Source of the DNA: Candidatus Latescibacterota bacterium
Lineage (GTDB): Bacteria > Latescibacterota > UBA2968
Assembly: GCA_965205975.1 (NCBI GenBank)
Contig: OZ242195.1
Span: 1,440,001-1,504,000, forward strand
DNA: 64,000 nt
Direction: 5' to 3'
The notes below the pieces were generated by a model, which searched no databases, was not told the DNA's origin, and saw nothing but the letters and a program-made list of their open reading frames with translations. The first letter of the stretch is position 1. Each line of letters opens with the position of its first letter. Positions 27,149 to 41,180 of this stretch are shown one piece after another. Position numbers and translations under genes: made by a program.

Positions 27149-28042
27149 ATGGTCATTCGGATTTCAAACCTGACAAAAGTATATCGCCGTGGCGCAGTTC
27201 CCGCCCTGGACGATGTCACATTGACCATTCCTCACGGAACATTTGGTCTGTTGGGACCCAACGGTGCGGGCAAAACAACGTTGATTAAAATTTTATCGAC
27301 TCAGATGGACGCATCGAGCGGCAACGTGACCATGGATGAATTCGATCTGGTAAAAGACCGCACAGAAATTCGCCGGCGTCTGGGATATTTGCCTCAGCAT
27401 TTTGGGACTTATCCCCAACTGACTGCTTGGGAATTTCTCGATTATATGGCTGTTCTGGGCGGTATGCACAATAGAACAGCGCGTCTAAATCGCGTGGAGC
27501 AGGCTTTAAATGAAGTCGGATTGTACGAAGCGCGCAATCGGCGCTCGGGCACGTTTTCCGGGGGCATGATGCGCCGCCTTGGTATTGCACAGACCATTTT
27601 GACCAATCCAGAGTTTCTCATTGTCGATGAACCCACCGTGGGACTTGACCCGGAAGAACGCATCCGGTTCCGGGGTATTTTGGGACGCTTGAGCAGTGAT
27701 CGCGCAATTTTGATTTCCACGCATATTGTGGGCGATATTTCAAGCACCTGCGAAGATCTCGCGGTCCTGGATACCGGACGGCTGATCTTTCGCGGTTCTC
27801 CCGGAGCACTCATTTCAAAAGCCGATGGCAAAACGTGGGAAGTGCAGGTTGATGACGCTGGCTTTGAAATGCTGTCGCGCGTGTTTCGCGTAGTCACAGT
27901 AAATGTTGAGGGCGACATGATGCGTTTGCGTATGGTGGGCGATGGCGAGCCACCCGCTGATGCCGAAGCAGTCGCGCCCAATCTCGAAGATGCCTATGTC
28001 TATTTCGTCGGAGGCGATACCACAGGCGAAATCGCCGCGTAA
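27149..28042 (+). CDS. ABC transporter ATP-binding protein (ABC-2 exporter type)
   Basis: 'GPNGAGKTT', 'FSGGM', 'IVDEPT.GLDP', 'STH', C-terminal 'PNLEDAY'. Confidence 0.95.
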   Translation: MVIRISNLTKVYRRGAVPALDDVTLTIPHGTFGLLGPNGAGKTTLIKILSTQMDASSGNVTMDEFDLVKDRTEIRRRLGYLPQHFGTYPQLTAWEFLDYMAVLGGMHNRTARLNRVEQALNEVGLYEARNRRSGTFSGGMMRRLGIAQTILTNPEFLIVDEPTVGLDPEERIRFRGILGRLSSDRAILISTHIVGDISSTCEDLAVLDTGRLIFRGSPGALISKADGKTWEVQVDDAGFEMLSRVFRVVTVNVEGDMMRLRMVGDGEPPADAEAVAPNLEDAYVYFVGGDTTGEIAA

Positions 28043-28054
28043 AGGACCAATACC

Positions 28055-38700: not shown

Positions 38701-40480
38701 TTCAGCAACCACCATTTTGGGCATGTTGCCTCTGGCACTCATATTTGGCGGCGATTACGAAATTTGGCCGCCCTTTGCGATTGTGGTAATCGGAGGGCTG
38801 GCGGTTTCAACGGTTTCCACCCTCGTGTTTATTCCCGTGGTGTACATGGGAATTGATCAGACTAAAGCCTGGCTGACGGATATTGGGTGGTTCGGGATCG
38901 TATTGGGAACAACGGCAGCTGCGGGATTGACGTATTGGGTTGACGATTATTACCAGAGTTTGTTCTGGACCTGTCTTTTGGCATTGCCAGCGTGGATGTT
39001 GTGTATGGGTGTGATCTGGGTTGTGCAACGCATTTATCGCGCGCGTATGGCTTCTCTTGCTGAGATCGGCAATATTGAACATCTCGAAATTCGCAATCTG
39101 ACCAAAATTTACGGCGCGCCGGGACGATTTAAGCACGAATGGGATCGCTTTAAGCGGCGTCATCAGCGCCTTTTAGAGCGCGGGCAGGTATTGGTAGATA
39201 AAAAGGCGATTAAGGACAGTTTGTGGTGGAAGTTACCACTTTTGGCACTTATGACCTATTTGGAAACCTATTTTGAACAGGGAACCTGGATCTTTTTGAC
39301 CGCGCTTGCTATGTGGGGCCTTGTACATCACCTCGTGCTATGTGCAGCTGCTTTGCGCGATTTTCGGATCGAGAATAGATGGATATCACAAATCGCCCGA
39401 TTGATTTTGCCGCTGGTCTTTGTGGCCTTTGTGCATTGGCGTTTGGAACTTATATCTTTGACTATAGCCACCAGTGCGATCTATTTGCTCTATCGCATTG
39501 TCGGATTTTTGGCAAATCGCGTTGCACAAGGACGCATTGATCCCGAGCATATACCGGGCAAATTAGGCCCTGTTAAAGGCATCGTGTACCGCGGAGCTGC
39601 CGCCATTCCCTTGATTGGGGTTCCCCGCCCACAATTCCAGGCTCTCGGAGGTGTAAGTCTCGATATTCCGCGCGGCATGTTTGGACTTCTGGGTCCCAAT
39701 GGCGCGGGCAAAACCACGCTGATGCGAATTGTGTGTCGGGTTCTGTCGTCAAATTACGGATCTGTGCTCGCCAATGGCAAAATACCGCTTACGCATCGGA
39801 ATATGCAGGGGGTGATTGGATATTTGCCGCAGCATTTTGGCCTTTATCTGCACATGTCTGCGTATAATTATCTGGAATACCGCGCGCTTTTGGAAGGATT
39901 TAAGGATGGGATGGCTCGGCGCAAGCGCGTTCAAGAATGCCTGGAACAGGTCAATCTGTGGGATAGGCGCGACGATCCGATTGGTTCGTTCTCTGGCGGC
40001 ATGAAACAGCGCGTGGGCATTGCACAAACCCTGTTGCACTTGCCGCAGATTATCGTAGTGGATGAACCGACAGCGGGATTGGACCCACTCGAGCGGATCC
40101 GGTTCAGAAATCTGCTGGCGCGATTTAGCCAGGAAAAAATCATTATTTTTTCCACACATATTGTCGAAGATATTGCGGGCAGTTGTAACCGATTGGCTGT
40201 GCTGAATCACGGTAAGGTGCTCTACACGGGAACCCCGATTGAAATGCGCGATTTGGCACGCGATAAGGTGTGGGAGGCTCTGCTGCCAGATCCGCGTTTT
40301 GAAGCGCTGGAACGCGACCTGGATATGATTACACATGTGCGCGTACCCGACGGGATTCGGGTGCGATTCCTCGCTACTGATCCCATCCCAGAAGCACATC
40401 CAGTTGCGCCCACCCTCGAAGATGCATACCTCTATCTTTTGCGACATGGCGATGAATACAAACAGGCTAACATGGCGTGA
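35756..40480 (+). CDS. RND permease fused to extra TM helices and a C-terminal ABC ATPase
   Basis: RND motifs 'GMLMDNGIVVMENI' and 'RVRPVLMT', then 'GPNGAGKTT', 'FSGGMKQR', 'VVDEPT', 'STH' in one 1574-aa frame. Confidence 0.92.
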   Translation: MTLAGIAVLRPVTTAMFFIGLAILGVISLDRLPVQIFPELVRPEVFVAVTQQGYSPEQVERDLVMPVEREVGKLEGIEAYESFSRQNSGGVRISYAPNTDMKFALLQLESRITRLQSLLPERTRVNVQRFDASDLSASIMQIHVLGEGDINWLREFAEEKIRPELEAVDGVVNAQVLGGQRTAIEIIVDPLMLQAHQLSMSDVRNRINAFNTRRQYLGKVYDGDQAYAVSIQGQFTDLVQIRRVVIKPELPLHLGDIAKIRYGLQERTDLQRINGKAAVGIRIQKDDEANLIELAGELEHTIERINGDLAYENIQLVISQNQAEIMNEALNFLKRAAVVGGLLGLFVLFLFLRNLRFVAVLLLAIPCSLLLTFNLMYMWDLSLNVLSMCGLALAVGMLMDNGIVVMENIFKHFEQGKSPKEAAKAGTDEVARAVVAATATTITVFLPVVFIQSDFQDVLREFALSIAFPLLASLLVALTLVPALASKTLSLASRPPTGTGLLIEMYTVCLKAGLRHRISVSLGIIGALVITLIISFFFMLQQDIRREENRFTVYISMPEGTTIEALDAVVGEIESAVRDLKGVDRFTTSISETQASINVELLSLSERPDQISVDLIKENLEESFGDVQNAIVSYEAIARTGRGGGGGRGGGGGGGIRGTRQATGGFNLEGGAPSEMAVIRGYDFTVLQMLADDLVYRLEELEEIDPNSVRADAERGASEVHVLPDEEVMFDRRLQVRQVLNAVSDANPRGARSNISFLTPEGTEIPIDVRNVEDPEEEGEGIAGLRQTPILGSGGTYIPLVEVSHVRRDQGRSMILRTNQSRRVIVSYNFAEEILQSQPLLEASRAYVQDVVSEMVLPEGYSIEMIEAEEETIYYWMMGIAALLIFMILASLFESLSAPLIILCTLPAAIIGSCLALILSGTGLTSQEAPMALLGLIVLSGIAVNNGIVLIDAIETLRRRGFRRERAVLTASRSRVRPVLMTSATTILGMLPLALIFGGDYEIWPPFAIVVIGGLAVSTVSTLVFIPVVYMGIDQTKAWLTDIGWFGIVLGTTAAAGLTYWVDDYYQSLFWTCLLALPAWMLCMGVIWVVQRIYRARMASLAEIGNIEHLEIRNLTKIYGAPGRFKHEWDRFKRRHQRLLERGQVLVDKKAIKDSLWWKLPLLALMTYLETYFEQGTWIFLTALAMWGLVHHLVLCAAALRDFRIENRWISQIARLILPLVFVAFVHWRLELISLTIATSAIYLLYRIVGFLANRVAQGRIDPEHIPGKLGPVKGIVYRGAAAIPLIGVPRPQFQALGGVSLDIPRGMFGLLGPNGAGKTTLMRIVCRVLSSNYGSVLANGKIPLTHRNMQGVIGYLPQHFGLYLHMSAYNYLEYRALLEGFKDGMARRKRVQECLEQVNLWDRRDDPIGSFSGGMKQRVGIAQTLLHLPQIIVVDEPTAGLDPLERIRFRNLLARFSQEKIIIFSTHIVEDIAGSCNRLAVLNHGKVLYTGTPIEMRDLARDKVWEALLPDPRFEALERDLDMITHVRVPDGIRVRFLATDPIPEAHPVAPTLEDAYLYLLRHGDEYKQANMA

Positions 40481-41180
40481 GTTGCTTTTCTTTGTCGGAA
40501 AAATGCACAGCCTGAGCATGAAAATCGTGTTTCACCGCAAAATGATTTTTATGTTTGGCGGGATTGTGGCATATTACGCAATTTTGTACGCGATTGCAAT
40601 CTGGCGTCCAGGTGAAGGACTTTCAGTTGAACAAGCCCTCCATGTATTGGTTGAAGTACCGGGCACAGTGCTTGCAGTCTATCTGACGATGGATCTGGTG
40701 TCGGGGGAGAGAGATAAGGATACGCTCGAAATTCTGTTTAGCACGGCGATCAGTCACTACGCGACGTGGGCCGTGAGAATTGTGTCGATCAGCGCTGCGC
40801 TATTTGTCACGCTGATGGCAATGAGCACGATTTCCTACTATTTTTTTGCGGAATTCCCCTACCTTCTGGGGGGATTGAATGCATGTATCCCTGCCTTTTT
40901 TATGGTGGGAGCCACATTTTTGTTTTCTGTCTTGTGTCGCAGTGGCAATGCGGCAGGTATGCTCGCCGTTGGGCTTTTGATTGCGATTTTGCTTTCGACG
41001 GAGGTGTTTGAGGATACATCGTATTACCTTTTTCTCAAGCCATTTGACCCGCCTTCAGATTTAGATACCAGCCTGTGGGTAAATCGCGTGGTCTTAAACC
41101 GCGCGGGTATTGCCATTCTCGGTATATTGTTCATTTTTCTGGCTCTGAGGCGAATGATAGAACGCGAAAAGCTATTGTGA
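40446..41180 (+). CDS. ABC-2 type permease
   Basis: About 6 TMs; 'GERDKDTLEILFSTAIS' resembles the ABC-2 E..GT.E.L motif; overlaps the upstream gene. Confidence 0.8.
   Translation: MAMNTNRLTWRELLFFVGKMHSLSMKIVFHRKMIFMFGGIVAYYAILYAIAIWRPGEGLSVEQALHVLVEVPGTVLAVYLTMDLVSGERDKDTLEILFSTAISHYATWAVRIVSISAALFVTLMAMSTISYYFFAEFPYLLGGLNACIPAFFMVGATFLFSVLCRSGNAAGMLAVGLLIAILLSTEVFEDTSYYLFLKPFDPPSDLDTSLWVNRVVLNRAGIAILGILFIFLALRRMIEREKLL

Follow-up and report, generated by a model that had tools for sequence, protein, structure and literature searches.

The window analysed here is a stretch of 64,000 nucleotides from a Candidatus Latescibacterota bacterium (GenBank assembly GCA_965205975.1, contig OZ242195.1, positions 1,440,001 to 1,504,000 of the forward strand), and unless a locus is named all coordinates refer to it. 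Between positions 27149 and 41180 of its plus strand lie six co-oriented genes of a putative export operon, in which a resistance-nodulation-division (RND) permease and an ATP-binding cassette (ABC) ATPase are fused in one protein. The list of open reading frames (ORFs) and the domain searches agree on the six genes and their domains, and both the gene set and the fusion are confirmed. The reading of the locus in the original prediction, a note made from the letters alone, is partly supported.

The first gene (27149..28042) encodes NBD1, a free ABC ATPase or nucleotide-binding domain (NBD) of 297 aa that is DrrA/GldA-like, has a C-terminal extension and was identified by ABC_tran and a motif check. 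It is followed by TMD1 (28055..31537), a permease of 1160 aa containing a transmembrane domain (TMD), with weak ABC-2, M1-peptidase and Golvesin_C matches and a structure model. Locus comparison revealed that the next 86 nt (31538..31623) are a gap in which other lineages hold a TolC-like outer membrane factor (OMF) gene of the cassette. The periplasmic adaptor, a membrane fusion protein (MFP) of 357 aa (31624..32697), scores above the cut-off of TIGR01730, as an adaptor of a tripartite pump should, and is a probable lipoprotein with a lipobox-like IVAC. RND1 (32694..35759; 1021 aa) matches ACR_tran and has 12 hydrophobic segments, taken as 12 transmembrane helices (TM). The fusion ORF (35756..40480; 1574 aa) carries ACR_tran and ABC_tran in one frame, and TMD2 (40452..41180), a small ABC-2 type permease of 242 aa with a weak ABC2_membrane_3 match, closes the operon. 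The last four genes overlap as predicted, by 4, 4 and about 29 nt, with the start of the last gene probably near 40452 instead of the 40335 first proposed. Of the two flanking signals that had been claimed, the terminator has support from folding: a hairpin and U-tract (41214..41266, hairpin 41214-41254) form a probable intrinsic terminator (folding z -3.3 versus shuffles), which is absent from the 24 terminator-like sites of a consensus scan. The promoter was not borne out, as that scan listed no promoter-like site on the plus strand between fdhD and the first gene.

The RND2-ABC fusion

A search with aa 900-1574 of the fusion yielded 3955 matches among 7999 candidates, and nearly all of the best 120 carry both PF00873 and PF00005. 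The members of 1450-1700 aa among these 120 form a set of 111 proteins, the window protein included, and all 111 align across the RND-ABC junction. A junction profile searched against 1.84 billion representatives found 126 proteins at E<=1e-10, the long ones of about 1530-1600 aa. Contigs bridge the junction in two data sets: one of run X4 covers 37403-39231 with 2 differences, and one of a relative in RNA library X16 covers 38408-39891; RNA-library contigs cover most of the operon, yet such contigs cannot show transcription. The original prediction had allowed that the fusion might be absent from relatives or a missed stop. Neither is the case, because the 111 proteins align over the junction, and the same alignment together with the contigs rules out an assembly artefact. 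In a scan of one genome per species, at least 450 stretches with the fusion were confirmed, the best 80 of which came from Latescibacterota, Acidobacteriota, KSB1, Krumholzibacteria, Bacteroidota and others. The closest titled matches over the junction, 91-94% identical, are named Latescibacterota. Cultured carriers include Parabacteroides gordonii, P. goldsteinii, P. timonensis, P. leei and Bacteroides sp. 224; in the genus Bacteroides the junction occurs in 12 of 151 genomes, where a seven-gene cassette was confirmed and three loci were mapped. The fusion architecture is conserved, and it is undescribed in the literature searched.

The RND2 part of the fusion (aa 1-1034; 35756..38857) was delimited by domain match and alignment. 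After its TM12 come a linker with two extra membrane helices (38858..39079; 75-80 aa in 111/111 aligned proteins, and present in the model), the first beta-strand of the ATPase with its A-loop Tyr (LEIRNLTKIY, aa 1110-1119; 39080..39112), which is part of the NBD fold in the model, an insertion of 174 aa with four membrane helices (39113..39634), and the remainder and core of the ATPase (aa 1294-1574; 39635..40480), recognised by ABC_tran and 44% identical to NBD1. The original prediction overlooked the membrane insertion that breaks up the fused ATPase. In the alignment the insertion measures 166-259 aa in all 111 fusion proteins, compared with 3-5 aa in NBD1, so the fused domain does not have the contiguous beta1-beta2 hairpin of an ABC ATPase. 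An AlphaFold2 model of aa 868-1574 (pLDDT 84.6) shows four long helices in the insertion, and from the first strand the modelled NBD superposes on ordinary NBDs (1vpl, Z 26.7, rmsd 1.7, 233 residues). Averaged over 78 sequences, the number of Lys and Arg residues is 3.5-9.7 in the segments that must be cytoplasmic (1.3 in the short helix after TM12) and 0.1-1.2 in the three periplasmic turns. This positive-inside pattern and the count of 12+2+4 helices therefore place both ATPase pieces inside the cell. A structure-atlas search with the four-helix insertion returned chance-level matches only.

The fused ATPase keeps Walker A, the Q-loop, SGGM and the H in 111/111 proteins and the Walker B DE in 110/111 (one gap, in a truncated protein), and NBD1 keeps Walker A, Q, SGGM, DE and H in 57/57 relatives. 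With the catalytic motifs intact, a degenerate fused ATPase is ruled out, and both ATP sites look fully active. One motif check was preselected on Walker A and the TM11 motif and omitted 12 of 120 loci; on inspection these comprised 6 motif variants with an intact ATPase, 3 contig ends, 2 split frames and 1 shorter frame. In a tree with a small outgroup, long branches and a midpoint root, the free and fused NBDs form two supported sister groups that exclude five other NBDs of the genome. The best named-model score of NBD1 is drrA, below cut-off, and NosF is among the top structural matches of the NBD.

In a Bacteroides genome (G708; L184:11808-16518), the full seven-gene cassette has the fusion as two overlapping frames (1064 and 516 aa), the break falling in the linker helices.

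Conservation and subunits of the cassette

We counted the cassette genes in 103 de-duplicated loci, scoring each gene only where the flank suffices. TMD2 lies directly 3' of the fusion in 95 of 96 loci, and upstream of the fusion are found RND1 (86/88), the MFP (78/81), TMD1 (74/79) and NBD1 (31/34). The original prediction had asked whether the ABC and RND genes co-occur elsewhere, and they do so almost without exception. An OMF gene (PF02321) stands between TMD1 and the MFP in 38 of 78 loci; the statement that no TolC is encoded thus holds at this locus and fails for the cassette generally, and the OMF appears to have been lost from the cassette in this lineage. Six OMF-less loci (L044, L045, L050, L068, L079, L085) have a different OMF-like gene after TMD2, perhaps a replacement; those of L045 and L050 are 44% identical to another OMF of the window's genome.

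Among 153 genomes of the phylum, in which TMD1 was sought with a single-protein query, the junction was detected in 80, TMD1 in 79 and both in 77; the three genomes with the junction alone are 80-86% complete, and the two with TMD1 alone were found to hold the cassette. Among 401 Bacteroidales genomes the corresponding numbers are 53, 54 and 53, and in the odd TMD1-only genome the cassette is cut by a contig end. After this follow-up, TMD1 without cassette genes was found in 0 of the 153 and 401 genomes. The parts are retained where the operon breaks up. An apparent loss of NBD1 from three genomes (G017, G018, G011) was ruled out, since the gene is relocated (81-84% identical), and in another genome (G263) NBD1-TMD1 and the fusion are 0.58 Mb apart. 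Five Acidobacteriota loci (L069, L072, L073, L076, L078) consist of two divergent arms, NBD1-TMD1 and MFP-RND1-fusion-TMD2. In six further loci (L084, L087, L094, L098, L110, L126) the fusion is separated from RND1 or from TMD2 by unrelated small genes, with the cassette retained. No neighbours that would name a cargo recur across lineages among 593 flanking ORFs.

The two RND proteins score 772 and 600 bits against ACR_tran (PF00873; cut-off 28), far above their MMPL scores, and are RND permeases by this measure; all named HAE-1 models are below cut-off. The relay set of canonical HAE-1 pumps is D407, D408, K940, R971 and T978 in AcrB numbering. The corresponding positions are D407-N408 in TM4, N925 in TM10 and R957/T962 in TM11 of RND1, and D400-N401, N945 and R977/T982 of RND2, so that the D, R and T are present and the equivalents of Asp408 and Lys940 are Asn. 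The TM4 Asp and the TM11 Arg and Thr are kept in 84/84 RND1 and 92/92 RND2 proteins (Thr 91/92, with one gap), and a TM4 Glu is likewise invariant or nearly so in both. The same DN..N pattern occurs in 8 of the 17 other, unfused RNDs listed in the genome. Decay specific to the fused RND is ruled out by these paralogues, and the pattern is a subfamily trait.

The model of TMD1 (pLDDT 86.2) has three parts: a type V TMD (aa 1-250), an M1-aminopeptidase fold forming the ectodomain (about 294-964) and a CBM35-like domain (Golvesin_C, about 953-1110), with an extra helix after the first and a Gly/Arg-rich tail after the last. In structural comparison residues 1-251 match NosY best (Z 19.1, rmsd 3.7, 232 aligned) and also PmtD (Z 15.8), ABCG2 (Z 15.4) and ABCA4 (range Z 15-19), and the predicted six-TM fold with a coupling helix is that of a type V (ABC-2) TMD. 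The ectodomain resembles ERAP1 (Z 26.0, rmsd 4.8, 471 aligned; Foldseek E 6e-18) and the C-terminal domain resembles the C-terminus of xanthan lyase (Z 18.3). The M1 fold is present and the HEXXH(X18)E zinc site is lacking: HExxH occurs anywhere in just 1 of 79 aligned TMD1 proteins (its position unchecked) and not in the window protein, so the ectodomain very probably serves for binding rather than catalysis. TMD2 is probably homologous to the TMD of TMD1 (HHalign E 4e-5, 221 columns, probability 70%), its family has ABC2_membrane_2/3 matches in 26-27 of 79 members, and its sequence found no match in the PDB. The parts named in the original prediction add up to two NBDs, a type V TMD and a second, probable one, two RNDs and an MFP. 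A three-chain prediction of fusion aa 1037-1510, TMD2 and TMD1 aa 1-285, with TMD1 as the partner, scored 0.30 against a mark of 0.32 without controls and is evidence neither way.

The dead-peptidase ectodomain was overlooked in the original prediction, as were orphan paralogues of TMD1. Genomes hold up to 5 TMD1 matches, some of them fragments, and in the multi-TMD1 genomes checked the fusion and TMD2 are single-copy. The orphan genes stand with their own NBD1, in tandem pairs or alone; many lack an NBD in the stretch fetched, and TMD2 and RND genes were absent from all stretches fetched around them. Our reading is that a single core is shared and that its recognition subunits can be exchanged. 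In two genomes (G008, G020) an NBD1-TMD1 pair, and in a third (G018) a broken TMD1, lie in a cluster with a radical SAM/SPASM maturase, a Cys-rich precursor of 78-82 aa, GT4 glycosyltransferases and an HExxH membrane protease; all of these family matches are below cut-off except the SPASM domain. Because TMD1 paralogues occur in this cluster, and because of the M1 fold and the likeness of the TMD to the peptide exporter PmtD, a peptide or glycopeptide cargo is a weak lead. Some orphan TMD1 genes or cassettes adjoin GntR-ABC, DUF2975/HTH or LTXXQ genes, which we take to be envelope-stress modules.

The cluster (L136:4128-17225, L135:1-14053, L137:1-10343) looks like an undescribed one for ribosomally synthesised and post-translationally modified peptides (RiPP), with two GT4 enzymes and NBD1-TMD1 paralogues in three relatives, and in its precursor an acidic leader is conserved while the Cys/Asp-rich core varies. 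It is absent from the window's genome. Two other clusters of the window's genome (G000:C1:2800000-2822000 and 2660000-2671000) share a large GT4 that is 42% identical to the GT4 of the RiPP cluster. Judged by eye from translations, both have short precursor-like ORFs and peptidase-ABC-type exporters, and the first adds a radical SAM gene and a large kinase.

Other features of the window lie around the operon. Downstream (42611-43219, minus strand, and 43200-43560), an HTH_17/MerR-type protein with a coiled-coil tail adjoins a very AT-rich intergenic stretch near the terminus, and in relatives its gene stays 3' of the cassette with a tetratricopeptide repeat (TPR) gene. The sole genome match to the dif pattern used is a dif-like site at 42493-42520, ATACGGTATAA-TAAGCA-TTATGTAAACT, and the genome-wide maximum of cumulative GC-skew falls at 42097; by these two signs the replication terminus is about 1.3 kb downstream of the operon. 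Upstream (21937-25272), a secreted-type protein of 1111 aa combines five lamin-tail domains with internal duplications and ends in FlgD-Ig. Two tRNA-synthetase-like ORFs (44680-47394 and 47132-48427, minus strand) overlap as listed by 260 nt, but only because the first was given too early an ATG; its true start probably lies about 90 codons later.

A proposed export machine and its alternatives

All of the parts are likely to form one machine. As to how it works, the contacts, stoichiometry, order of steps, proton coupling and cargo given here are what we infer. RND1 and the RND2 fusion would assemble into a mixed trimer, the simplest ratio being 2:1. This trimer would dock on the MFP and on a channel of the TolC type, which many lineages encode in the cassette and which another operon presumably supplies here. 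Kept at the membrane by its 2+4 extra helices, the fused ATPase would couple to TMD2 and the free NBD1 to TMD1, and both ABC halves would pair as one heterodimeric type V transporter beside the RND trimer. Through ATP turnover a cargo, amphipathic and probably peptide-like, would be raised out of the cytoplasm or the membrane to the periplasmic side, where the catalytically dead M1-peptidase clamp of TMD1 would hold it and hand it to the RND porter domains, which would expel it through the MFP and OMF with the energy of an ion gradient; TMD1 would be the exchangeable specificity subunit. That a single complex lifts and expels cargo in this manner has, in our estimate, a chance somewhat short of even. 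We consider it rather doubtful, though worth stating, that the cassette represents a tripartite exporter of a new class: a covalently linked ABC heterodimer and RND heterotrimer would use ATP and an ion gradient in series, and one core would be reprogrammed for cargoes including modified ribosomal peptides by swapping pseudo-peptidase permeases whose genes lie elsewhere in the genome.

Several observations weigh against the two-step exporter. The pairing of TMD1 with TMD2 and of NBD1 with the fused NBD is suggested by genomic co-occurrence, and the counts overstate it, as related genomes are non-independent samples. None of the genome's 8 OMF-like ORFs scores as a cassette-type OMF (best 52 bits), so the outer channel must be borrowed here. 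In 84/84 RND1 and 92/92 RND2 proteins Asn stands where MdtB has its second Asp in TM4 and its Lys in TM10, and with Asn at two relay positions a canonical proton relay is not established. Two genomes (G056, G057) have tandem TMD1-TMD1 pairs behind one NBD1, which could be stand-alone transporters. The RiPP context is confined to 3 closely related genomes, most orphan TMD1 genes and cassettes have no recurring neighbours, and the C-terminal CBM35-like domain points to a glycan, not a peptide. The fusion frame is interrupted, by error or in reality, in six cases (L073, L083, L087, G079, G484, G708). Finally NosY, the closest solved match of the TMD, comes from an ABC complex that we take to be a mechanical device rather than a translocator.

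In an unlikely but serious alternative, the parts still form one machine and the ABC part is a mechanical transducer of the NosDFY or MacB kind: ATP would move the TMD1 ectodomain and so load or gate the RND with a periplasmic or envelope-bound substrate such as a peptide antibiotic, a glycopeptide or a damaged protein. The best TMD match (NosY) and the presence of NosF among the top NBD matches suit it, as do the large ligand-binding ectodomain facing the periplasm, where AcrB-type pumps are established to gather substrate, and the neighbours of some orphan TMD1 genes and cassettes, if they are envelope-stress modules. However, type V folds include true exporters (PmtCD, ABCG, Wzm), and TMD1 paralogues in a biosynthetic peptide cluster suit product export, though self-immunity would fit them too. 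It is quite improbable that the locus encodes two separate homodimeric transporters, a free-standing (NBD1-TMD1)2 and a (NBD2-TMD2)2 built from two fusions in an MdtB2C-like trimer, which share an operon and a pathway and no complex. NBD1-TMD1 does move as a unit, is divergently transcribed in Acidobacteriota and duplicates without TMD2, but a self-sufficient homodimer should sometimes stand alone, and TMD1 was never seen without cassette genes in the 153 and 401 genomes.

Two further explanations concern the roles of the modules. We hold it quite improbable that the RND subunits are a non-energised scaffold or conduit with ATP as the sole energy source, as passages of PMC11539658 propose for MmpL7 with DrrABC. 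The Asn residues at two canonical relay positions would agree with such a role, but both RNDs keep the TM4 Asp, the TM4 Glu and the TM11 Arg and Thr with next to no exceptions, and DN..N is also found in unfused RNDs of the genome. Were the ABC module a sensor or assembly factor, turning on the RND pump while moving no cargo itself, the covalent tether and six extra helices would suit allosteric control and the dead-enzyme ectodomain would suit sensing. The cassette has no recurrent signalling output domain or regulator, however, and with both ATP sites apparently fully active this explanation is highly improbable.

Comparison with known systems

Tripartite pumps are classed by one energised inner-membrane unit, which is an RND, an ABC or a major facilitator superfamily (MFS) protein. 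RND pumps draw their cargo from the periplasm or outer leaflet, and the first step is made by separate single-component transporters. If the proposed machine is true, an RND-ABC fusion never seen without ABC partners makes this hand-off the property of one particle, and two kinds of pump that are usually regarded as alternatives may act as a single export machine, perhaps one whose peptide-recognising subunits can be exchanged. An ATPase whose first hairpin contains four membrane helices is unusual in itself, and so is a dead-peptidase subunit that can be swapped. Whether the system had been characterised was a question left by the original prediction; no description of an RND-ABC fusion or of the cassette was found in the literature searched, whose scope left out subscription journals, TCDB and bioRxiv supplements and took in the first 300,000 characters of PMC8277102 by terms. 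The queried locus tags do not occur in the main text and 9 supplements of PMC8121099.

Among characterised pumps, MdtABC-TolC likewise combines an MFP, two tandem RND paralogues and an OMF, and MdtB is the best solved-structure match of RND1 (E 1e-92). MdtBC is described in the part of PMC8277102 searched as a heterotrimer. In contrast to the cassette, MdtABC-TolC has no ABC parts and MdtB has DD/K at TM4/TM10 where the cassette has DN/N, and RND2 adds six helices and an ATPase. MacAB-TolC, according to the same part of PMC8277102, is an ABC-energised tripartite pump with MFP and OMF whose NBD is fused to the membrane subunit. MacB, however, has its own four-TM fold and no RND, whereas the cassette joins an NBD to an RND and has TMDs read as type V. 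NosDFY and PmtCD share the type V TMD fold and an NBD with a C-terminal extension, but the periplasmic partner of NosY is a separate protein and their NBDs have no membrane insertion. The ABC units of NosDFY and PmtCD are homodimers without an RND. The permease and M1 architecture of TMD1 is shared by an uncharacterised family of ABC-2 permease::M1 aminopeptidase fusions, atlas neighbours at 0.88 that we treat as a lead only; these clusters have PF01433 in 83-100% of members, while TMD1 is without HExxH (but for 1/79), adds Golvesin_C and is tied to the RND cassette.

The tags BT0295-BT0302 of B. thetaiotaomicron would, we presume, fit the cassette. Passages of PMC11078008 describe BT0297-0300 as an RND cluster that bile raises by about 2 log2 and whose deletion did not bring about the biofilm defect. 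In its data BT0298 has a log2FC of 2.8 (padj 0.009) and the other cluster genes are not significant, and its all-gene table has no row for BT0300 or BT0301. BT_0297 is annotated as an outer-membrane SilC-like protein (in the passages of PMC4380924 concerned) and BT0299 as an RND permease (likewise in PMC10434189), and the passages on BT0297-0300 in PMC11078008, PMC4380924 and PMC10434189 do not mention a fusion or ABC genes.

The nearest precedent is MmpL7 with DrrABC, in which an RND and a type V ABC with two different TMDs serve one pathway: passages of PMC11539658 report that both are required for mycobacterial phthiocerol dimycocerosate (PDIM) export, that they are unfused, and that its authors have no direct evidence of a complex. 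MmpL7-DrrABC differs in being unfused, in having one ATPase gene and no MFP or OMF, in that MmpL7 is without proton-relay residues and in its MmpL rather than AcrB-type porter domains. Scores for ACR_tran far above MMPL, the fusion and the retained TM4 Asp likewise separate the cassette from an MmpL7-DrrABC-like system. What is added here is the genome-wide co-inheritance counts, the OMF loss in the lineage, the pattern of a single core with multiple TMD1 genes and the peptide-cluster lead. The cassette could serve as a model for the unproven coupling of MmpL7 and DrrABC, and it is testable now, because cultured gut Bacteroidales carry it.

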